NCBI RefSeq assembly: GCF_041365945.1
Contig: NZ_JBGFSK010000017.1
Location: forward strand, 2,555-12,733
Source of the DNA: Janibacter sp. GXQ6167
GTDB taxonomy: Bacteria; Actinomycetota; Actinomycetes; Actinomycetales; Dermatophilaceae
Direction of reading: 5' to 3'
Length of the DNA: 10,179 bases
Notes under the pieces: model-generated
What the model was told of the DNA's origin: nothing
Seen by the model: the letters and a program-made list of their open reading frames with translations, nothing else
Databases searched by the model: none
Translations under genes and position numbers: made by a program
Shown here: positions 1 to 9,919 of the stretch, one piece after another
How the letters are laid out: every line of letters starts with the position of its first letter
Position numbering within the stretch: the stretch's first letter is position 1

Positions 1-612
1 GCATCTTCGGACATTACATTCACCTTCTTCTGCTTTCTCTCACTGCCGCCCTTCCCCATGTGCCCGGCTTTCCCGGCCTCGGAGTACTACGACGGCTCCG
101 CCCCACCCGCACCCTTCGGCTGGCAACGCACCTATCCCCACCAATGCGGGGAGCGGAATGCGGATGGTTCCCACGTTCACTGTTGTTCGGTTGACGGGCG
201 AGGCGTCCGGCTTTACCCCTGCGGCATCGTCGTGGCTACGCCGTAGACCTTCACCACGACCTGCCGGACCCGACACATACCACCGTTCCGACAGTTCCCC
301 ACCCGCCACGACCATCAACGATGGCCCCGACAAGCGGTTACGCACCGCAAACCAGCCCCGATCCACCGGGTTAGAGCTGGGCGACGATCAAGAGGCTTTA
401 CGACACCGGTTCCTCTCGTACACCTTCCCGCCTTGCTCACCAGACACGGCCCATCCGGTAGTACTGGACCGTCCTGACTATGTCACGGCTGCTCCCACCC
501 ACCCCAGGCGTTCCCCCAGGACAGGCTGCCGTCAGCTTCACTCGGCCGCTACGACGGCCAATCGATCAAGGTCTCTCACCTCCATCCGATACAACAGCGC
601 CTCGTGGCGCAC
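1..612 (-). mobile_element. Probable group II intron, 5' portion (domains I-III up to the start of the intron-encoded ORF); continues beyond window start
   Basis: On the minus strand, ISL3 transposase similarity stops at ...GTCGACGAGCACGTC (627-613). The next bases are GTGCG (612-608), the canonical group II intron 5' end. About 600 nt follow with no credible ORF; the 108-aa ORF at 40-366 is G/R/V-rich noise. This stretch is GC-rich with many short stems, e.g. GTCGTGG/CCACGAC at 226-232 and 253-259. It ends in the purine-rich AGAAGAAGGTGAATGTA followed by ATG TCC GAA GAT GC at the window edge. That distance is where the domain IV reverse-transcriptase ORF usually begins. No covariance model was run. 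Confidence 0.5.
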
Positions 613-1123
613 GACGTGCTCGTCGACACCGATCGTGGTGACCCCGTCGAACCGACCAGGATCGTCGATCAGGCGCCGCTTGCCCTCCGCGAGCACCGCA
701 GTGTTCGCGGCGCTCCAGGAAACCCCAAGACCGGCGGCGACACGGGTCACGGTGAGGTGGTCGACGACGATGCCCCGCAGCGCCCACTCCACGCCGAGGC
801 GGGAGATCTTCGCTCGTGGCGCGGCGGCGCGAGTCATGTCCCGCCGCCACGTCCGCCGGCAGTGCGCGCACCGGTAGCGGCGGACCCGGACCAGAAGCGT
901 TGTCGGCCTATGCCCGAACGGCTCATGCGCGAGTCGACGCGTCACCGTGTCCCGCGACACACCCCTCCGCCCCGCACTTCCGACACCAGGGGTCCACCTC
1001 GACCGACCGACACTCGATCATCGCCCGGTCCCGCTCGAGCAGCTGGCCGACCGCTTCGAGCCCGAGTTCATCGAGGCGGCAGAACGTGGTCAGGTCAGGG
1101 GTCGCGAAAGTAGGGTGGAGCAC
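613..1123 (-). pseudogene. ISL3-family transposase, N-terminal ~170 codons; frameshifted and interrupted
   Basis: Two track ORFs on the minus strand join into one protein. ORF 923-1123 reads MLHPTFATPDLTTFCRLDELGLEAVGQLLERDRAMIECRSVEVDPWCRKCGAEG. ORF 538-960 reads SRDTVTRRLAHEPFGHRPTTLLVRVRRYRCAHCRRTWRRD...TTIGVDEHV. Together they match the conserved ISL3 N-terminus (CxxC...CxxC Zn finger, then HTH, then VDEHxWRH). The join needs removal of one G from the GGGG run at about 962-965 (plus-strand CCCC). Similarity ends at 613. Confidence 0.85.
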
Positions 1124-1210
1124 GTCGAGGTCTTTCGGGATGGCGAGCGTGAAGAACTTCCATCATCCGGGAGACCTCGACCCCTACCCGGCTGCCAACG
1201 CGCTCACCCG

Positions 1211-1235
1211 ACTACACCCTCATTCGTGAAGAGCC
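1211..1235 (-). repeat. Terminal inverted repeat (IRL) of the ISL3-family element
   Basis: The minus strand reads 5'-GGCTCTTCACGAATGAGGGTGTAGT. The outer boundary coincides with the loss of integrase-like coding sequence. The inner extent is approximate because the partner IR is outside the window. Confidence 0.55.
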
Positions 1236-1653
1236 CGATAAGACGGGCGACGTTGCGGCTGACGAGTTCGTCGCGCATCGCGCGGGTCAGGGCGGCGGAC
1301 AGTACGGTGCGGAACTTCTGTGCGGTGCGGATTGAGTGGCCCTCGTCGAGCAGCGCGCAGGCGGCGTTCTGCACGTCGCGCACGGTGAGCTGGGTCAGGC
1401 GCTTGCTGCCGATGCGAGGAAGGATGTGCAGTCGCACGACGCCCTCGTATCCCCGTGCGGTGTTGCGTCGGTTGCGGCGCGGCACGACTGTCTCTAGCCA
1501 CTGCTGCAGATAGCCGGCGACCGTGACCTGTGAGTTCGGGGTCAGGATGCCGCGGCCCTCGTGCCGCGGCCCGCCCGGGCGCTTGCGTCGCCTTGCGACC
1601 CGCCGGATCGGCTCGAAAAGACGTTCTGTGGTATATCTATTACGAGAGGCCAT
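1236..1653 (-). pseudogene. Tyrosine recombinase/phage integrase, N-terminal SAM-like (core-binding) domain only; catalytic domain removed by the IS insertion
   Basis: Part of track ORF 1204-1857 (-). The segment TVAGYLQQWLETVVPRRNRRNTARGYEGVVRLHILPRIGSKRLTQLTVRDVQNAACALLDEGHSIRTAQKFRTVLSAALTRAMRDELVSRNVARLI matches the integrase N-terminal SAM-like pattern. The last 11 codons and the stop (GLFTNEGVVG*) are encoded by the IS terminal repeat. ATG at 1653 is the first plausible start. No R..HxxR..Y catalytic domain is present. Confidence 0.85.
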
Positions 1654-1661: not shown

Positions 1662-1714
1662 TGCACCTGGGCCTTGTCTGGGGGCTACCCAGATCGAGTC
1701 TGGAGGTGTACGGC

Positions 1715-2329
1715 GTGGCCGCGCGAGTCGTCGATGTGCGTTGTCCGGGATGCGGGAGCGCCTGGAGCACCAACCAGCAGTTCTGCCAGTACTGCGGTCG
1801 CCAGGTGCTGATCAGCTCGATGTCCGACCTGATCAGCCTGGAAGCGCGCGACCTCAAGAAGCACGTCCGTACCTACGAGGACGCGCTGGACGAGGGCGCC
1901 GATGATCCGAGCGTGCATGCGGCGCTCGGCATGTGCCTGCTCAAGCTGGGGCTGCGCGACAAGGCGCTGTCGCACTTCGAGGATGCGCTGCTCGATGACA
2001 TCGAGAACTCGGAACCGTACTTCTACGCCGCCGTCGCGTCGCTGGGTGGCAAGAAGCCGTTCCTGGTTCCGCTGGCTGGCATCCGCCGCGCGGAGGAGTA
2101 CCTCACGGCGGCGCTGCGGCTCGAGGAGCGCGGAATCTACGCCTACCTCTACGGGTACATCCGCTTCGACTACTACGAGCGCAAGTCGCTGAACGTCGAG
2201 CCGTCGTACCAGCACTACCTGCAGCAGGCAGTGCTTCGCGGTGTGACCGATCTGGACATCCAGACGCTGTTCGAGCTGCTGGAGATCGTCCCTTCGTCCG
2301 CTTCCATTCCGACCAGCGTTTCCGCCTGA
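1715..2329 (+). CDS. Zn-ribbon plus TPR-like repeat protein (hypothetical)
   Basis: Track ORF 1523-2329. I place the start at GTG 1715, which has GGAGG at 1702-1706 with an 8-nt spacer. In-frame alternatives are ATG 1661 and GTG 1736. The N-terminus carries CPGCGSAWSTNQQFCQYCG (CxxC-x11-CxxC zinc ribbon). HAALGMCLLKLGLRDKALSHFEDAL is a textbook TPR-like helix pair. The rest is helical and shows high-GC third-position codon use. Confidence 0.8.
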   Translation: MAARVVDVRCPGCGSAWSTNQQFCQYCGRQVLISSMSDLISLEARDLKKHVRTYEDALDEGADDPSVHAALGMCLLKLGLRDKALSHFEDALLDDIENSEPYFYAAVASLGGKKPFLVPLAGIRRAEEYLTAALRLEERGIYAYLYGYIRFDYYERKSLNVEPSYQHYLQQAVLRGVTDLDIQTLFELLEIVPSSASIPTSVSA

Positions 2330-2365
2330 CCCCTGTTCTAACCACCCGAGAGAGGTTCCTTCGCA

Positions 2366-3061
2366 ATGGCCATCAACTATGAGCGCAACAAGAAGTACTT
2401 CAAGCAGTCCAGCCCCAAGGCCGGCATCATCCTGATCGTGATCGGCCTGGTGCTGACGCTCGCCCTCCCCGAGGCGGGCAAGCTCGTCGGCATCCTGGGC
2501 ATCCTGGGTGGCGCGGCGCTGATCTACTTCCAGTTCGCGGGCAAGCCGAGCGACGCGGACATCGACTCGGACGCTGCTGCCGCCATCGCGGACGTGAAGA
2601 AGCGCGCGCTGGGCAAGCTCGGTCTGGACGAGGACGAGGTCAAGCTCATCGACCCGGTGATCGTTCACGGCTACTACTACAAGAACATCGCCTCGGGCGT
2701 GCAGGTCAAGCTCGGCAAGGACCGCGTCTTCCGTTCCTCGAACTACGAGGGCGTCGTGCTGTTCTTCAGCGAGCACCAGCTGCACGCGTTCAAGTTCCAG
2801 TTCTCTCTCGTCTCGCCGCAGGAGAGCCGCGAGCAGACCGACGAGTACTTCTACAAGGACGTCGTGTCGGTGGCGACGCAGTCGGAGACGTTCAAGATCA
2901 ACGACATCAAGGGCAACAGCCAGCAGGTCAACTTCGAGGAGTTCAAGCTCACCACCACGGGTGGCACCTCGATCACTTCGTCGATCCGCGACGAGGGCTC
3001 GGTCAGCCGCGTCATCTCCGGCGCGCGCAGCCTGATTCGCGAGAAGAAGATCGCGTCCTGA
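2366..3061 (+). CDS. Membrane protein: N-terminal 2-TM hairpin plus beta-rich soluble C-terminal domain (possibly PH-like); function unknown
   Basis: ATG 2366 has GAGAGAGG ~10 nt upstream. The TM segments are AGIILIVIGLVLTLALP and LVGILGILGGAALIYFQF (about 2420-2536). The C-domain has alternating strand-like segments (VIVHGYYY, VVLFFSEHQLHAFKFQFSL, EYFYKDVVSVAT, FKLTTTGGTSI). I recognise no catalytic motif. Confidence 0.85.
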   Translation: MAINYERNKKYFKQSSPKAGIILIVIGLVLTLALPEAGKLVGILGILGGAALIYFQFAGKPSDADIDSDAAAAIADVKKRALGKLGLDEDEVKLIDPVIVHGYYYKNIASGVQVKLGKDRVFRSSNYEGVVLFFSEHQLHAFKFQFSLVSPQESREQTDEYFYKDVVSVATQSETFKINDIKGNSQQVNFEEFKLTTTGGTSITSSIRDEGSVSRVISGARSLIREKKIAS

Positions 3062-3076
3062 CCCCGAGTTCTCTGC

Positions 3077-3115
3077 GTGCCGGGGCCGGTCGGCAGTCGC
3101 CACCGGCTCCGGCAC
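3077..3115 (+). promoter_or_regulatory. Intergenic GC-rich stem-loop (14-bp stem, 11-nt loop); possible partial terminator, attenuator or RNA-stability element
   Basis: GTGCCGGGGCCGGT (3077-3090) pairs with ACCGGCTCCGGCAC (3102-3115). There are 13 Watson-Crick pairs plus one G-U. It sits in the only sizeable intergenic gap of the cluster (3062-3156). No U-tract follows. Confidence 0.5.
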
Positions 3116-3156
3116 ACCAATTCCGCTGCCCGAGCGTGACGTGAGGAGTGTGCCGT

Positions 3157-5841
3157 ATGCCCGCAGGCGACGCGCCCCTGACGTTCACGCCTCTCGCGCA
3201 GGGTGAAGTAGCCGCTGCTACGGTGGTCGAGGTCGTCCGCATCCCGCACGTCTCCGTGCTGGGCGATGATCCGGCTGCCGAGCTGGTGCAGCAGTCCAAG
3301 CGGGACTTCGTCAGCCTGCTGTTCGAGGCGTACCAGTCGTACCGCGGACAGTACGAGGACGGCCCCGACCGAGCTAGCGACTGCGCTCTGGAACTGCTTT
3401 GGCAAGCACACCCCATTCAGGGCCAGCCGCACGCCGCCGACCTCACGCTATTCATCATCGTTCGCGCGATCGGCGCGAACCGGGACGACGCAGCGGCGGT
3501 TGTCAACGAGCTGCACGCTGTCGTGATCAGCGCGCTCACGCTCGGCGGCTTCGACTACGCAGATCGTCCTGCCTCCGCGATCGGCGCCCAGGCGGCGGAA
3601 CGGTCGGTTGCGCTCGTGAAGGAGGAGTGGATTGAGAACCTCGGCAACCAGATCCTGCCGAGCGCCTTCGCCTTCCACCGTATCCCCACGGGCAGCCGTG
3701 ATCTCTCACGTATCGCCAGCGCCCTAACCGAGGTGCCCGGTGCGTCCCTCTCGGTTCAGCTGATCCCGGCGACACTGGAGCCTGACGAGCGGACTGCTAT
3801 CGAGCAGCTGACGCTGGCGCTCACGACCCTCGCCAACGGTGTGACGGATCAGTCGATCGGTACCGTCAGCTTCACCGCGGCGAAGCGCCTCGCGGAGATG
3901 TACTCGTATCTGGAGGGGCACAAGGACTCGCCCCTGTTTCTGTTTAACGTCGTCGTCTCCGGGCCGAAGCTCGCCGTGCCGGTGATCGCCAACCGGGTGC
4001 TCGGTCACCTCTCCGCCGACGCCGAGGTAGGCGCGCTGGCGGCACGCTTCGTCGACGCCACAGCCCTGGTGCCACGAGGCGATGCGTCCTTCGTCGCTGC
4101 ACCGTGGCAGCTGAACGAGACGCTGCTCGACCAGACTCGTGATCCGTCGCTCTGGGCGGCGGGCCGCAATCCCGGTGAGGCATTCTACCGGCTGCCGTTC
4201 CTGCTGACGGCATTCGAGGCATCGGAGTTGTTCCGTCTGCCGATCGGCAGTGACACGGTCGGCGCCGGGCTGACGGTGAACACCACGACCCGGCACTCGC
4301 GCAACTACTCGGCCGGCGTGATCGGGAGCTCGAGCATCGAAGCCGGGCGACTCGCCGGGGCGGCCGAGGTCTCGATCGGGTTCGGGCATACCGACCTGAC
4401 CAAGCACGCTTTCGTCACGGGGACGCCCGGTTCGGGTAAGACGACGTTCACGGTCGGGCTGCTCGACCGGCTCTGGCACGAGCACGGCATCCCGTATCTG
4501 GTGATCGAGCCGGCGAAGAACGAGTACCGGGCGCTGATCGAGACGACGCCGGATCTGCAGGTGTTCACCCCGGGCAAGGATCATCTGTCTCCGCTTGTGC
4601 TGAACCCGTTCCTGCCGCCAGCGGGCGTGCGGGTGCAGAGCTACAAGTCGACCCTCAAGACGGCGTTCGCAGCCGCGGTCACGATGACGAGCCCCCTGGA
4701 CAAGATCTTCGAGGACGCCCTCTCAGCCACGTACTCGCGGTTTGGCTGGTTCGATGCCGACACAGCCGCCGATGGCCGTGAGGTGTTCTCTATCCGCGAC
4801 TTCCTGGCCGTTTTCCAGGAGACCTTCGTCCGCATCGGCTACACCGGAGACGCGGCCAACATCGGACGAGCAGGCCAGGTGCGCCTGCAGAGTCTGGTTG
4901 GCCTGTTCGACACCTACCCTTCGATCCCTGTCGAGGATCTGCTGTCGAAACCCACGGTAATCGAGCTGGCAGGGATCGAGAACAGCGACGACAAGGCCCT
5001 CTACATCGCGCTCATCCTGCTGCAGGTCCTCGCCTACGTGAACGCCAACGTCGCCGGCGACGGGAAACTCAAGCACGTCCTCCTGCTCGAAGAAGCCCAC
5101 GTCTTGCTCGACGCCGACGACGCCAGCGGACCGGGCGAAGCGGACCCCGCCGCGATTGCGAAGAAGCTGCTCAAACGCATGTTGGCCGAGATCCGCTCCT
5201 ACGGCGTCGGCATCATCGTGGCCGATCAGTCGCCACGCAAGGTCGGCTCGGACGTGGTGGCGCTCACGAACATCAAGCTCGGGTTCCGGCTGGTCGAGGC
5301 CGCAGACAAGGAGATCCTGGCCGAGAGCACCAACATGAGCGACGCGCAGCGCGAGCGGCTGGCGCGGCTCCGGCCGGGCGAGGCACTCCTGTTCTACGAC
5401 CGCCTCGAAGACCCCGAGGAGATCGCCACAGCCGACTGGCGCGCCCAGCGCGGCATCCCGACGTTCGTGTCCGATGAGGAGATCGCCCGAAAGGTCACTT
5501 ACTGGCAGCGGCACCCGGAACTGCTCATGCCATACCCGGAGAGCGCCTACATCGGGGGCTGGGACGCCTCGGTTGCCGGTGCGGGCAAGGAGATCGCCCG
5601 GCGCCTCTTCGCCGCGCACGTCCCGGCCGGCGATGTCGGCGTCAAGAGATTCGGCAGCATCTACCGGCAGCTCGATGCGTTCATCGCCGCCGAACTTCCC
5701 GCGTCGATCCCGAACACGCCGGCCCTGCGGCGAGCGGTCAAGGTCAACTTCCTGCGGCTGGTCAAGTACGAGTCGCAGATCCCACTGTCGGACGCCACGA
5801 TCCACAAGACCCTCGAAGCCGAGAGGAGCCGCACAGCATGA
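3157..5841 (+). CDS. HerA/FtsK-superfamily P-loop ATPase (DUF87/HerA-like C-terminal half) with a ~420-aa uncharacterised N-terminal region
   Basis: Track ORF 3148-5841. ATG 3157 is preferred, with GAGGAG at 3143-3148 and an 8-nt spacer. Walker A is GTPGSGKTT (4420-4446). YLVIEPAKNEYRAL follows it. Walker B is VLLLEEAH (5077-5100). IIVADQSPRKV, TNIKLGFRL and LRPGEALLF match the motif order of HerA-type hexameric ATPases. Confidence 0.93.
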   Translation: MPAGDAPLTFTPLAQGEVAAATVVEVVRIPHVSVLGDDPAAELVQQSKRDFVSLLFEAYQSYRGQYEDGPDRASDCALELLWQAHPIQGQPHAADLTLFIIVRAIGANRDDAAAVVNELHAVVISALTLGGFDYADRPASAIGAQAAERSVALVKEEWIENLGNQILPSAFAFHRIPTGSRDLSRIASALTEVPGASLSVQLIPATLEPDERTAIEQLTLALTTLANGVTDQSIGTVSFTAAKRLAEMYSYLEGHKDSPLFLFNVVVSGPKLAVPVIANRVLGHLSADAEVGALAARFVDATALVPRGDASFVAAPWQLNETLLDQTRDPSLWAAGRNPGEAFYRLPFLLTAFEASELFRLPIGSDTVGAGLTVNTTTRHSRNYSAGVIGSSSIEAGRLAGAAEVSIGFGHTDLTKHAFVTGTPGSGKTTFTVGLLDRLWHEHGIPYLVIEPAKNEYRALIETTPDLQVFTPGKDHLSPLVLNPFLPPAGVRVQSYKSTLKTAFAAAVTMTSPLDKIFEDALSATYSRFGWFDADTAADGREVFSIRDFLAVFQETFVRIGYTGDAANIGRAGQVRLQSLVGLFDTYPSIPVEDLLSKPTVIELAGIENSDDKALYIALILLQVLAYVNANVAGDGKLKHVLLLEEAHVLLDADDASGPGEADPAAIAKKLLKRMLAEIRSYGVGIIVADQSPRKVGSDVVALTNIKLGFRLVEAADKEILAESTNMSDAQRERLARLRPGEALLFYDRLEDPEEIATADWRAQRGIPTFVSDEEIARKVTYWQRHPELLMPYPESAYIGGWDASVAGAGKEIARRLFAAHVPAGDVGVKRFGSIYRQLDAFIAAELPASIPNTPALRRAVKVNFLRLVKYESQIPLSDATIHKTLEAERSRTA

Positions 5842-7019
5842 GCGACTACGGCACCGACATTGCAGACGCCCCCGTCGACACCGGCGCGGACGTCAGCGTG
5901 CCCGATACGACCGACTACGCCGACGAGCCGGTCGACCTGGCCGAGACCCCGCCCGAGTCGGAGGCGCCCGAGGCCGAGGAGGCGCCGCCCGCCGAAGACC
6001 TCTCGGAGCCCGCAGCAGATGAACTGAGCGGCACGGCGGAGACGCCGGCGGATGCGGAGGCACCCGTCGACCTGGGCGCGGCCCCGGAAACGGCCGACGC
6101 CGCCCCGGAACAGCCCCAGGACTGGCAGGAGGGCGAGGTCGTCGATCTCGGCGACGACGCTGCCCCCGACGCCCCGCAGGAGGACGAGACCGCCGAGGCG
6201 GACGATCCTGCCGGGCGCGACCTGGGTGATCCCGACCTGGCCGACAGCCCGGAGGCCGAGGCTCCCACGGATAGCGCCGGTGAGGATCTGACGACACCGA
6301 CGGACGACGAACCGGGCGCCGGTGATGCGCCGACTGACGCCGACGAGCAGGTACCTGAGGCGGCGGAGATTGAGCCCGAGGCCGCAAACGACGTGACGGA
6401 TGCCGAACCCGAGCCCAGGGTCGATGAGTTGACAGAGGCGGCCCGGGATGAGGCCCGCCCCGCCGACGAGCTGCGCGCCGAGTACTACGCCGACGTGGCT
6501 GATGTGCTGGCCGATGACACACCATCCGACGCCGAGCCGGTCGAGACGCAGGACACTCCCGGAGCAGACGCTGCCGAGGCGCCGGAGTCGAGCGATCACG
6601 CGGACGCCGCCAATGACCGCAGCAACTCCCCAGAGAACGAGGCACTGACCTCGGCGCTAGCCGAGAAAGGCCTGTCGCTGGAGCCGGTCGATCGCTTCGA
6701 CTACAGCGACAACCCGGTTCTCGGCTACCGCGAGTCCGCCCCGCCCGAAGACGTCGCGTACGCCGTCAACGCCTGGAACGACGAGATCGCGCCCGGCATC
6801 GCGGCCGGCGCGACCCGTGAGGACTTCGCCGCCTACGACCAGGAGCACGGCCTCGAAGGGCAGCGGCAGCTGGCCGGCGTCTACGACTACATGCTCGGCG
6901 GCGACGCGATCAAGAGCGGCGGAGAGCGCGAGGACGGATCGCTCGACGTCACCGGCGGCAGGCACCGCCTGGAACAGGCGCGTCTGAACGGCGTCCAGTA
7001 CCTGCCCGTGAGGAAGTAG
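5838..7019 (+). CDS. Hyper-acidic, low-complexity protein with a C-terminal ParB/Srx-like (GxHR) domain; function unknown
   Basis: ATG 5838 overlaps the ATPase stop (ATGA), and GAGGAG lies at 5823-5828. By hand count the first ~270 aa hold about 89 D/E, 6 R and 0 K, and are rich in P, A and T. The last ~115 aa are ordinary in composition. They end DGSLDVTGGRHRLEQARLNGVQYLPV, which resembles the ParB-N/sulfiredoxin-fold signature (x-G-x-H-R-x2-A-x4-G-x4-P-V). Confidence 0.85.
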   Translation: MSDYGTDIADAPVDTGADVSVPDTTDYADEPVDLAETPPESEAPEAEEAPPAEDLSEPAADELSGTAETPADAEAPVDLGAAPETADAAPEQPQDWQEGEVVDLGDDAAPDAPQEDETAEADDPAGRDLGDPDLADSPEAEAPTDSAGEDLTTPTDDEPGAGDAPTDADEQVPEAAEIEPEAANDVTDAEPEPRVDELTEAARDEARPADELRAEYYADVADVLADDTPSDAEPVETQDTPGADAAEAPESSDHADAANDRSNSPENEALTSALAEKGLSLEPVDRFDYSDNPVLGYRESAPPEDVAYAVNAWNDEIAPGIAAGATREDFAAYDQEHGLEGQRQLAGVYDYMLGGDAIKSGGEREDGSLDVTGGRHRLEQARLNGVQYLPVRK

Positions 7020-7056
7020 CCGACCCGGCATCCGATCCGACGAAAGCGAACACCGT

Positions 7057-8256
7057 ATGAAGATCTACGACGTCATCAAGAACGAGACCGGCCTTCTCAA
7101 CGACGGCCTGGGCTCGAAGGCCGTGCTGGCGTGGAAGTTCACCGGTGAGGACTTCAACGACAACACGCAGCTGATCGTCTCCGAATCGGAGGAGGCGATC
7201 TTCATCCGCGACGGCATCGCCGTGGCGACCTTCGGCGGCGGCCGCTACACGCTCAACAGCAACAACCACCCCTTCATCGGCAGGCTGAGGAACCTGCTCT
7301 CCGGCGGGGTGAGCGCGTTCAGCTCGCGGGTGTACTTCGTCAACATCGATCACAAGTTGGAACTGCTGTGGGGCACCGACAGCCCGATCCAGCTCCGCGA
7401 CCCGGTCTGGAGCCTGCAGACCAGCGTGCAGGCGCGCGGCTCGTACTCGATCCAGGTGACGGACTCCAAGAAGTTCCTGATCAAACTGCTCGGCACCAAC
7501 ATCCAGGTTTTCGACGAGCAGCAGCTCGCCGGCTACTTCCGCAGCGCCTTCTCGCAGCACATCCGCGGACAGATCGCCCGCTACATCCGCGACTCCGGCC
7601 AGGAGATCCTGGAGATCACCTCGGACATCGAGCTGCTGGCCGAGCAGCTGCACCCGAGGCTCGCACCGCTGCTGGATGAGTACGGCGTGAAGCTCGTCAA
7701 CTTCTACATCGCCGCGATCGACATCCCCACCGACGACCCGAACCGCCAAGTGCTGGAGAACTCGATCGCACAGAAGCAGGCCAAGCTGCAGAGCGCGCAG
7801 GGCGATAAGGCCGTCATGGGGCTGCTCGGGGAAGACTGGGCCAGGCAGCAGTCGGCCACCATCCTCACCGAGCTCGCCAAGAACCCCGGCGCGGGTGGCG
7901 TGGCTTCCGCGGGTGCCGCAGCAGGCGTTGGCCTGGCTGCGGGCAGCGTCTTCGGGGAGATGGCGACGCAGATGTTCACGCGCCCCGTCCAGCCCGCAGG
8001 CGACCCGATGGCTGGCAATGTCGGGCGCAACCGCACATCGCGCTTCTCGCCCGCAGAGCCTGCCGCGCCGGCCGCCGCCGAGACGTGTCCGGGCTGCGGC
8101 GCGAGCGTGGCGGCGGGAGCGAAGTTCTGCCCGGAGTGCGGCAACCGTCTCGCACCTCAGCAGGTGCCCTGCTCGGGTTGCGGAACCGCAATCGCGAGCA
8201 CGGCCAAGTTCTGCCCCGAATGCGGAACGCCGAACAACCAGGGAGCATCCTCATGA
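7057..8256 (+). CDS. SPFH/band-7 family protein of the YdjI (COG4260-like) type with a C-terminal double zinc ribbon
   Basis: The N-terminal ~235 aa (MKIYDVIKNE...WKFTGEDFNDNTQLIVSESEEAIFIRDG...YFVNIDHKLELLWGT...RGSYSIQVTD...VKLVNFYIAAIDIP) match the YdjI / virion-core-protein-like SPFH family pattern. A Gly/Ala-rich segment GAGGVASAGAAAGVGLAAGSVFG follows (about 7885-7956). Then come two ribbons, CPGCG-x9-FCPECG and CSGCG-x9-FCPECG (8086-8232). Confidence 0.93.
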   Translation: MKIYDVIKNETGLLNDGLGSKAVLAWKFTGEDFNDNTQLIVSESEEAIFIRDGIAVATFGGGRYTLNSNNHPFIGRLRNLLSGGVSAFSSRVYFVNIDHKLELLWGTDSPIQLRDPVWSLQTSVQARGSYSIQVTDSKKFLIKLLGTNIQVFDEQQLAGYFRSAFSQHIRGQIARYIRDSGQEILEITSDIELLAEQLHPRLAPLLDEYGVKLVNFYIAAIDIPTDDPNRQVLENSIAQKQAKLQSAQGDKAVMGLLGEDWARQQSATILTELAKNPGAGGVASAGAAAGVGLAAGSVFGEMATQMFTRPVQPAGDPMAGNVGRNRTSRFSPAEPAAPAAAETCPGCGASVAAGAKFCPECGNRLAPQQVPCSGCGTAIASTAKFCPECGTPNNQGASS

Positions 8257-8930
8257 CCCGCACGATCCTGCGCGCCATCCTGTGGCTCGTCCCCATCGCC
8301 GTCTACGTCGCCATCTTCCTCATCCTCGAGGCCCCGCAGGGCGCGACGTTCTGGACGTCCGCACTGCTGCTGGCGTTCGCCTACGTCATGCTCGCCGTCA
8401 GTTTCGTCGCCGTGCCGCGCAGTCGGATAGCCGCGATCCTGGCCATGCCCCTGATCCTGGTGGCGAGCATCTACTTCACTGCCGAGCTCATCGCGGCCAG
8501 CATCTTCATCTACGTGCAGGACATTCCATACCCGTGGGTGATCATCACGCAGCTGATCCTGGCCGCGATCTTCCTCGTCGTGTTCCTCACCACCTTGTTG
8601 TCCAACGAGGCCATCGCCGCCCAGATCGAGACCCAGCACGCCGACGTCCTGGTGATCAAGAGCGCCGTCACCCGCATCACGGCCCTGGGACGTGTCGCCC
8701 ACGATCCGCGCCTGGCGAAGTCGCTGGACGGGCTGGCCGAGGAGTTCCGCTACAGCCCGACGATGCGCTCGAACCAGGTGCGCGAAGTCGACGCGCAGAT
8801 CGCCGTGCAGCTCGAGCGACTGGAGAGCCTCGTCCACATCCAAGCTTCGCAAGAGGATACCGTCGGCCAGATCGCGGCGATATCCGGGGCGCTCGCTTCA
8901 CGCAACGAGGCGATCAAGCTCCGCCAGTAG
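8253..8930 (+). CDS. Integral membrane protein (4 predicted TM helices) with a helical C-terminal domain; function unknown
   Basis: ATG 8253 overlaps the SPFH stop (ATGA), and GGGAG lies 7 nt upstream. There are four long hydrophobic segments (ILRAILWLVPIAVYVAIFLIL, FWTSALLLAFAYVMLAVSFVAV, IAAILAMPLILVASIYFTAELIAASIFIYV, WVIITQLILAAIFLVVFLTTLL). About 110 aa of amphipathic helix follow. The longer track ORF from 8085 overlaps the SPFH gene out of frame, so I reject it. Confidence 0.85.
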   Translation: MTRTILRAILWLVPIAVYVAIFLILEAPQGATFWTSALLLAFAYVMLAVSFVAVPRSRIAAILAMPLILVASIYFTAELIAASIFIYVQDIPYPWVIITQLILAAIFLVVFLTTLLSNEAIAAQIETQHADVLVIKSAVTRITALGRVAHDPRLAKSLDGLAEEFRYSPTMRSNQVREVDAQIAVQLERLESLVHIQASQEDTVGQIAAISGALASRNEAIKLRQ

Positions 8931-9226
8931 GAGGAGGTGCATAGGGCAGACCCGCGCGCAGATCCGGCCACGGCTGCGGCACCAGCTGGTCGAGCGTGAC
9001 ACCGAGCACCTGCGCGATGGCCATGATCTTGCGCAGACTCGGGTTGGCCGGAGTCTCCGGCATCGACTCGCCCTTCTCGAACTTCTGGAAGGTGTAGCGC
9101 GTGAGCCCAGCGGCGTAGGCAACCTGCTCCTGGGTGAGTCCACGGTCGATCCGGTGCCGCTGAATGCTGGCACCAAGTTCGCGCGCGTACTGGGGCCAAG
9201 GGCCATCGGGTCGTCGTTTTTGCCAT
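8914..9226 (-). pseudogene. XRE-family helix-turn-helix transcriptional regulator, apparent +1 frameshift near the 5' end (or assembly indel)
   Basis: Not in the ORF track. The minus-strand frame open from 9225 to 8917 encodes ...PQYARELGASIQRHRIDRGLTQEQVAYAAGLTRYTFQKFEKGESMPETPANPSLRKIMAIAQVLGVTLDQLV...*. This is a classic Cro/C1-type HTH, but it has no start codon upstream of the HTH. ATG at 9226-9224 is in the adjacent frame. Deleting one A from the AAAAA run (9216-9220, plus-strand TTTTT) gives an intact 103-aa protein beginning MAKRRPDGPWPQYARELG. The span is 313 nt, which is 3n+1. Confidence 0.75.
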
Positions 9227-9263
9227 CACCCCAGGCTGAGCAGGTGGCCTCCCGGAACGAACC

Positions 9264-9283
9264 TCCTGTATATGGCAATAGAT
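9264..9283 (-). promoter_or_regulatory. AT-rich motif copy B (ATCTATTGCCATATACAGGA), upstream of the XRE gene; candidate operator or promoter element
   Basis: The reverse complement of 9264-9283 is ATCTATTGCCATATACAGGA. It is identical to copy A apart from the 7-nt insert in A. It lies 38 nt upstream of the XRE ATG, in the same orientation relative to its gene as copy A. Confidence 0.5.
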
Positions 9284-9376
9284 CCGCTCGATCAGTAACC
9301 CCGCGTGGCCGTCGGCGACGATAGGCGCATGAATGAAGAAGGCCCGGGAGCCGCTCCAGCCGAGAACTCGTGGTTC

Positions 9377-9919
9377 TCAAGGCCGGGGCGAACTCCCGAG
9401 CAGGGCGTGCAGCTGATGGCTGGCTGGTGAGACGGCGCGAATGCGGGTCTCGTGGAGGGCGGGGTCGTGCGTGCGCAGGTACATCGCCCAGAACGCCGCG
9501 TCGGCATACGTTGTGTGCAGATCTGACTGCGCCCGCCAGCCGCTCGAAGCGGTGCGCCGGTAGCCGACTTCGTAAGGGCCGCCATGCAGGAGTTCCTGCA
9601 CGAGTGATGCCGGGACGTCACCGACCGGGTAGGTGCTGCCGATATCGCCCACGAGGAGCACGTCGCCGTGCAACGCCGGCCGCTGCCTTGAAGTGGTGTC
9701 CCAGAACCAGCGCAGCGACGAGGCGCGCAGGTTCATCGGGAGCCCGTTTCGGCGGTCGTCGGCGTCGAGCCACATCGTGACACCTCGGCTCTCGATGTCG
9801 ATCGGGATCACCAGATCAGCGAGCTGCTGAATGTCTGCGAACCCTGCGACCTCCCGCGTTTCGAGTTGTTGCTCGATCTGCGCCGGGATGAGAACAGCCG
9901 TGACGGTCTCACCATTCAC
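9377..9919 (-). CDS. Hypothetical protein with an N-terminal DUF3846-like domain
   Basis: Track ORF with a GTG start at 9919. VTAVLIPAQIEQQLETREVAGFADIQQLADLVIPIDIESRGVTMWLDADDRRNGLPMNLRAS...GDVLLVGDIG follows the DUF3846 pattern as I recall it (ALLIP...V..LQ.LVGG.IE......LW.NEEG...GLP.N.RA....G..l..G). The C-terminal ~80 aa are unassigned. Confidence 0.6.
   Translation of the reverse strand: MNGETVTAVLIPAQIEQQLETREVAGFADIQQLADLVIPIDIESRGVTMWLDADDRRNGLPMNLRASSLRWFWDTTSRQRPALHGDVLLVGDIGSTYPVGDVPASLVQELLHGGPYEVGYRRTASSGWRAQSDLHTTYADAAFWAMYLRTHDPALHETRIRAVSPASHQLHALLGSSPRP

Follow-up and report, generated by a model that had tools for sequence, protein, structure and literature searches.

The first 1653 positions of a 10,179-nucleotide (nt) stretch of Janibacter sp. 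GXQ6167 (contig NZ_JBGFSK010000017.1, positions 2,555 to 12,733; the whole stretch is referred to below as the window) carry pieces of several mobile elements on the minus strand, raising the question of how these pieces are arranged and whether the innermost of them is a group II intron. An earlier note, written from the sequence alone, had proposed nesting at three levels, in which an integrase gene is cut by an insertion sequence (IS) of the ISL3 family and this in turn by a putative group II intron. Comparison with homologs of each layer confirmed the three junctions where the note had put them, all on the minus strand. We are therefore highly confident that the minus strand from 1653 to 1 represents an integrase fragment cut by ISL3, with the ISL3 transposase gene cut by a group II intron in sense orientation. 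It is known that group II introns of bacteria sit preferentially in other mobile elements (PMC4181065), and several of them are inserted in genes for transposases or integrases (PMC4238363). The nest is a clean instance of this known phenomenon and constitutes no new class of system. The coordinates of all features are collected in Table 1.

The junctions of the nest

The outermost layer is the integrase, with its ATG at 1653-1651. The N-terminal SAM-like, core-binding domain is present (Pfam Phage_int_SAM_3, residues 45-97, 3.2e-10), and residues 36-139 align in tblastn to the N-terminal part of annotated site-specific or tyrosine integrases on actinobacterial plasmids. In a reference integrase of 423 amino acids (aa) the matched part corresponds to approximately residues 61-192, and about 230 aa follow further downstream, including the catalytic domain. 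Because the reference continues that far past the matched part, some 230 residues including the catalytic domain are missing from the window open reading frame (ORF). No C-terminal catalytic domain (R-H-R-Y) was found in this ORF, in which IS sequence takes over after residue 139. From there the frame enters the ISL3 repeat GGCTCTTCACGAATGAGGGTGTAGT and ends at a stop at 1204, the last 10-11 codons or so and the stop being supplied by the terminal repeat. This agrees with the proposal that the coding sequence is replaced at 1235 by the repeat, which had put the number of borrowed codons at 11. The integrase gene is a truncated fragment, not an intact member of its family.

The terminal repeat starts GGCTCTTC at 1235 and has the GGCTCTT start typical of ISL3; only the left repeat lies within the window. 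When the 5' ends of nine independent ISL3 copies were aligned, the upstream flanks were unrelated and homology began at GGCTC(T/A)TC, which corresponds to 1235. As an empty-site control we used an intron-less ISL3 located on a plasmid of Glutamicibacter nicotianae (locus L030, 1500-3200). It aligns with the window from exactly 1235 to exactly 613, at 81% nt identity. The L030 element is itself frameshifted, having the N- and C-terminal parts of its transposase in different frames, and adjoins IS6100.

Within these limits the window encodes the N-terminal part of an ISL3 transposase. Its zinc ribbon is found by Pfam (Zn_ribbon_ISL3, 27.7 bits against a cutoff of 25.5), and the position of the DDE domain lies beyond the intron, outside the window. 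Homologous exon 1 proteins occur at loci L006, L010 and L013, and in L006, L010 and L030 the homologous transposases run on into the WRHT...DDE regions. The transposase had been described as running from 1123 to 613. The L030 alignment supports the end point, as similarity ends at 613 within the VDEHxWRH motif; the frame, however, is not continuous. Compared with L030 the window has one extra base near 961, at GGGG-T-GTG, between the zinc-ribbon cysteines and RDTVTRRLAHEP, and the transposase frame is therefore split into ORFs 1123-923 and 960-538. The extra base may be a true mutation that inactivates the gene, or else a sequencing error in the homopolymer.

Upstream of the transposase start the ISL3 element can form a hairpin (1126-1184), the stem of which is kept in other ISL3 copies despite changes in sequence. 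The hairpin may limit translation from read-through transcripts. Sub-threshold Rfam matches to mir-36_2, Ms_IGR-7 and IMPDH RNA were rejected as chance; they fall on the ISL3 hairpin at 1122-1240.

The innermost junction is defined by the same control. L030 and the window match through ...GACGAGCACGTC (window 613); beyond it L030 has TGGCGTCAC, encoding WRH, which gives GVDEHV WRH. In place of the WRH codons the window reads GTGCGCCAC, with GTGCG at 612-608 directly following the last homologous ISL3 base, as expected from the GUGYG 5' boundary of group II introns. The first nine intron bases (612-604, minus strand), GTGCGCCAC, resemble the displaced exon TGGCGCCAC. Because of this mimicry the interrupted ORF reads VDEHV-VRH (native VDEHVWRH) and the megablast alignment overran the junction by 9 nt. 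The resemblance is probably a coincidence, since related introns with other, unrelated targets also conserve GTGCGCC. After GVDEHV, the short "VRH..." reading frame should be annotated as intron sequence and not as transposase.

Identity, fold and exon recognition of the intron

Of the intron, the window contains no more than the 5' 612 nt, comprising domains I-III, the start of domain IV and the start codon of the intron-encoded protein. A blastn search of bases 612-1 against plasmids returned 112 records, 47 of which cover at least 80% of the query, and many of the alignments span from query base 1-2 to where an annotated ltrA gene starts. Close copies were found in Tessaracoccus, Propioniciclava, Luteococcus, Brooklawnia, one metagenome-assembled genome of Actinomycetes, and others. 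Alignment with complete introns of 2180 nt gave identities of 94.5-96% across ~640 aligned nt and of 95.8-98% across the first 600 nt.

The complete relatives carry the decisive features. The elements at L006, L009 and L010 are 2180-2181 nt long and end in a match to the domain V/VI model RF00029 (59.3 bits; gathering score 40). Deleting these 2180-2181 nt from L006 and L010 restores ...GVDEHV/WRHTR... and with it a full ISL3 transposase. L006 encodes a protein of 488 aa with the domains RVT_1 (2.5e-38) and GIIM (1.4e-18), as found in reverse transcriptase (RT)/maturases, and its best relative of solved structure is the T.el4h maturase-RT (1.7e-59). No HNH endonuclease domain was found in this 488-aa protein. 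In the window the Shine-Dalgarno (SD) sequence and the ATG of the intron-encoded protein are intact, and its coding sequence reaches from MSED into the fifth codon, of which two bases are included.

Conservation of the fold was assessed in a structure alignment of 18 sequences (the window, two close copies and 15 diverged plasmid introns). The consensus fold holds 165 pairs; at 78 of them both partners change and pairing is retained. Of the cells in the alignment 96.3% are paired, against 32-46% when partners were slid by 1-3 columns; the corresponding numbers of covarying pairs are 78 against 20-28, and shuffled alignments gave 45.8 +/- 3.6. None of 500 shuffles reached the observed values. 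Helix 1 of the RNAalifold prediction (columns 2-4 with 608-610) shows no changes on both sides and was not relied on. The view that a structured noncoding stretch of ~600 nt starts at GTGCG and ends in an SD sequence plus ATG was thus borne out by homology, by covariation and by the ATG at 14-12.

Group II introns recognise their target through exon-binding sites (EBS1 and EBS2), which pair with intron-binding sites (IBS1 and IBS2) in the 5' exon. In the introns compared here, the loops assigned as EBS1 and EBS2 differ from one lineage to the next within conserved flanks. Across 16 intron lineages, the pairing of each intron with its own 5' exon was compared with its pairing to the exons of the other lineages (Mann-Whitney). 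The own exon pairs better than the exons of others for both EBS2 (p = 4e-6) and EBS1 (p = 7e-5). The window EBS1 is in register with perfect EBS1/IBS1 pairs of 6-7 bp in L001, L024, L026 and L029, and perfect loop/exon matches of 6-8 bp occur in L001, L002, L020, L024 and L029.

The earlier note had expected an IBS1/EBS1 pairing, and such a pairing exists, although not at the intron positions it had proposed. Its candidate EBS1, AACGTG at 177-172 on the minus strand, is rejected. This segment corresponds to intron nt 436-441 and forms the 3' strand of the stem closing domain I, where alignment columns 6-10 pair with 454-458 (the 172..177 strand with intron nt 6-10), with swaps between AU and GC in 8-9 of the 18 sequences. 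The AACGTG segment is moreover conserved in sequence whatever the exon.

The intron lineage and competing explanations

To delimit the lineage, one genome per species was scanned for exact matches to the first 27 intron bases. Fourteen genome loci share these bases, and in 10 of them an ISL3 transposase gene ends with GVDEH(V/I) exactly at the junction. The exon 1 DNA of the ISL3 hosts is 57-84% identical, and the intron copies inside are 96-99.7% identical. Because the introns are so much more alike than their host exons, the comparison indicates that the intron entered its different ISL3 hosts recently and independently. The target motif is conserved across the ISL3 family, so that one intron lineage can colonise diverged ISL3s in several actinobacterial genera.

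Not all copies follow this pattern. In Tessaracoccus massiliensis SIT6 the same intron is present at two non-ISL3 sites (L009 and L011), with the flanks CTCGACGAGGTCGTC and GTAGACGAAGACGTC, which match the ISL3 target only partly (GACGA..CGTC). These look like cases of ectopic retrotransposition within one genome, as judged from the flanks. In L005 and L012, both inside ISL3 genes, similarity to the intron is lost part-way through domain I, after ~147 nt and ~385 nt, respectively.

On balance we favour, as a working interpretation that is somewhat better than even, that this intron lineage has specialised as a parasite of ISL3 elements as a family. The EBS1 and EBS2 of the lineage would be tuned to the DNA of the nearly invariant GVDEH(V/I)/W, allowing it to hop between ISL3s with less than 70% DNA identity and to be carried by them among genera of the Propionibacteriales and of other Actinomycetes, while making ISL3 transposition dependent on splicing. 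We found no description in the open-access literature of an intron lineage aimed at ISL3 or at a conserved transposase motif; a paper on Dolosigranulum treats both elements separately.

The nest records successive insertions. An ISL3-family insertion sequence first transposed into the tyrosine integrase gene after codon 139. The group II intron then retrohomed in sense orientation into the ISL3 transposase gene, exactly between the ...GVDEHV and WRH... codons. For this the intron would be transcribed inside a transposase mRNA and, helped by its RT/maturase, splice out as a lariat; the resulting ribonucleoprotein would locate an intron-less ISL3 by pairing of EBS2 (UCGUCG) and EBS1 (AUGUG) with CGACGA..CACGT, and reverse-splice into it. 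Reverse transcription would probably be primed at replication forks by nascent lagging-strand DNA, as in RmInt1, because the intron-encoded protein of the complete relative is without an endonuclease domain. Retrohoming of endonuclease-less introns has been described to use replication forks with the nascent lagging strand as primer (PMC6698660).

Some observations weigh against this interpretation. Domains V and VI, the RT ORF and the 3' exon lie beyond base 1 of the window and are predicted for this copy from homologs, while splicing and mobility of the lineage are likewise extrapolated from the complete copies and from characterised introns. The covariance-model check that had been suggested gave no Rfam intron family in the window at the gathering score or at E<=10, and no D1-D4 model; RF00029 matches only in the related complete copies. 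The Rfam group-II-D1D4 models are class-specific, and the miss lowers only the assignment to those particular classes. The exon recognition of the window copy is also imperfect, as exon base -1 (C) faces U and is unpaired with EBS1, leaving an EBS1 pairing of 5 bp plus wobbles. Finally, two close copies elsewhere (L005 and L012) are truncated or interrupted.

The last of these points bears on the alternative that the 612 nt are a dead 5' remnant, truncated or interrupted past the window edge, so that the nesting would be a fossil in which nothing splices. Besides the two relatives that depart from the intron part-way, this is favoured by the host transposase, which is already frameshifted, so that relaxed selection on the copy is likely. 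All 612 nt are nevertheless colinear with complete copies at 94.5-98% identity, the window is one of the rows of the alignment whose helices pair at 96.3% overall, and the intron-encoded protein retains an intact SD sequence and ATG. We therefore regard a dead remnant as unlikely.

A second alternative is a single entry of the intron into an ancestral ISL3 followed by vertical inheritance during diversification of the IS, without any specific homing. One ancestral insertion would equally account for the shared codon boundary at which every ISL3-borne copy is found. Vertical carriage is, however, hard to reconcile with introns that are 96-99.7% identical in hosts whose exons are 57-84% identical at the DNA level, with the existence of intron-less relatives of the same IS (L030), and with the same intron at the two non-ISL3 sites with similar GACGA..CGTC flanks, and we consider it very improbable. 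That bases 612-1 are instead part of another IS or ordinary structured noncoding DNA starting with GTGCG by chance can be practically dismissed, since the lack of an Rfam match in the window is set against full-length homology to sequences that lead from a boundary resembling a splice site to an annotated ltrA gene, against complete relatives that have domain V/VI and whose removal restores the host ORF, and against the covariation of both the structure and the EBS/IBS pairs. The matched elements have an RT/maturase, domain V/VI and a following ISL3 half, and it is the 5' 612 nt of these elements, not another IS or ordinary sequence, that bases 612-1 were found to match.

Returning to the nested intron, we infer the RT ORF, domain V/VI and the 3' halves of ISL3 and of the integrase in the Janibacter copy from homologous loci. 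If the copy is complete, the missing left part would hold ~1.57 kb more of the intron with a 488-aa RT/maturase, domain V as GAGCCGGAUGCG... and the end ...CCGACCCAAC. This would be followed by TGGCG(C/G)CAC, ~0.8 kb of ISL3 and a right repeat with ...GAAGAGCC at its end. In this copy all three elements are probably disabled, because the integrase is, at least locally, without its catalytic half and the transposase is both interrupted by the intron and frameshifted. For annotation, bases 1-1653 should be treated as a stack of broken mobile elements without a functional gene.

Neighbouring genes and relation to known systems

The cluster to the right of the integrase (Table 1) may be a defence-like or conflict module. 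Among these right-hand genes PADLOC gave only HerA/mad8-like matches, to the 897-aa ATPase (mad8 9e-17, plus HerA models), and no complete known defence system. A scan for a tRNA as attachment site found no tRNA in the window. The suggestion that the nesting immobilises an island and explains why the adjacent cluster is fixed here is speculation.

Table 1. Positions of the nested elements, their parts and the adjacent genes in the 10,179-nt window
Feature	Position	Strand	Basis and details
Tyrosine (phage-type) integrase, N-terminal 139 codons	1237..1653	-	Pfam, tblastn
Left terminal inverted repeat of ISL3-family element, GGCTCTTCACGAATGAGGGTGTAGT	1211..1235	-	5'-end alignment of nine copies; L030
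Conserved hairpin GUCGAGGUCU...AGACCUCGAC	1126..1184	-	Minimum free energy hairpin, z = -1.9; ends 2 nt before transposase GTG
ISL3 transposase, 5' exon	613..1123	-	GTG start 1123; +1 frameshift ~961; ends ...GVDEHV at 613
Group II intron, 5' 612 nt	1..612	-	GTGCG 612-608; homology to 2180-nt introns; covariation
Intron domain I	~607-171	-	Consensus structure
Intron domain II	~170-100	-	Consensus structure
Intron domain III	~96-45	-	Consensus structure; start of domain IV with SD and start of intron-encoded protein follows
EBS2 UCGUCG	382..387	-	Pairs with IBS2 CGACGA, exon -13 to -8 (window 625-620); internal loop of consensus
EBS1 UAUGUGU	273..279	-	Pairs with IBS1 GCACGU, exon -7 to -2; terminal loop of covarying stem
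Start codon of intron-encoded RT/maturase	12..14	-	Aligned with ATG of L006 488-aa protein and annotated ltrA starts of L001-L003
Gene cluster right of integrase	1685-9919		
Zn-ribbon/TPR protein	1685-2329		
231-aa protein			Without family match
897-aa ATPase			HerA/DUF87-like
393-aa protein			Very acidic
SPFH/Band-7 protein	7057-8256		With double zinc ribbon
281-aa membrane protein			
DUF3846 protein			

The host element agrees with other ISL3 insertion sequences such as L030 in the same GGCTCTTC repeat, the hairpin before the start codon, the N-terminal zinc ribbon and the GVDEHVWRH motif. It differs from L030 by the intron at 613/612 and the frameshift near 961, and its right half lies outside the window.

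The closest relatives of the intron outside its own lineage are the introns with ltrA genes on actinobacterial plasmids of Streptomyces, Rhodococcus and Mycobacterium (L001-L003, L018-L029). Their domains I-III are homologous to those of the window intron (67-73% identity by BLAST), and they share its secondary structure and the positions of EBS1 and EBS2. They differ in having other EBS sequences and other targets, and none of those sampled is located in ISL3. Five of these related lineages (L020, L021, L026, L027 and L029; position 200 in each) start with UUGCG and not GUGCG. In L020, L026, L027 and L029 the IBS1/EBS1 pairing stops directly 5' of the U, so that these introns apparently start with U instead of the usual G. 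A sister lineage on plasmids of Streptomyces, Rhodococcus and Mycobacterium (L022, L023 and L025) has the shared target GACTGGGC(A/G)GAA..CA(C/T) at 5' flank positions 181-200 and the EBS2 GCCCA, which suggests that it uses another conserved gene as its homing site.

Among characterised introns the best parallel is RmInt1 (class IIB3/D), an endonuclease-less intron in the transposase coding region of ISRm2011-2 from Sinorhizobium meliloti (PMC4238363). Like the window intron, which has the same orientation as the transposase on the minus strand, as the earlier note had also read it, RmInt1 lies in sense orientation within an IS transposase gene. RmInt1 and the lineage of the window intron, as judged from its complete copies, further share an intron-encoded protein with RT and maturase domains and without an endonuclease, target recognition by EBS1 and EBS2, and an IS that needs splicing for an intact transposase (PMC4238363, PMC6698660). 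When introns reside in transposase genes, mobility of the IS depends on splicing (PMC4238363).

The differences concern the host and the target. RmInt1 resides in an IS630-Tc1 element of the Alphaproteobacteria, whereas here the host is an ISL3 element of the Actinomycetota and the protein has 488 aa. The observation is solid but biologically ordinary; modestly interesting is that homing into a conserved motif of the transposase extends across the IS family. What is useful is the choice of target. An endonuclease-less intron whose guides fit a motif shared by a whole IS family offers a natural case in which one selfish element follows another from species to species; the defined EBS/IBS pairs could be tested or re-targeted. 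Compared with RmInt1, the target is a motif conserved across the whole IS family, and the intron occurs in many diverged members of that family and in several genera.

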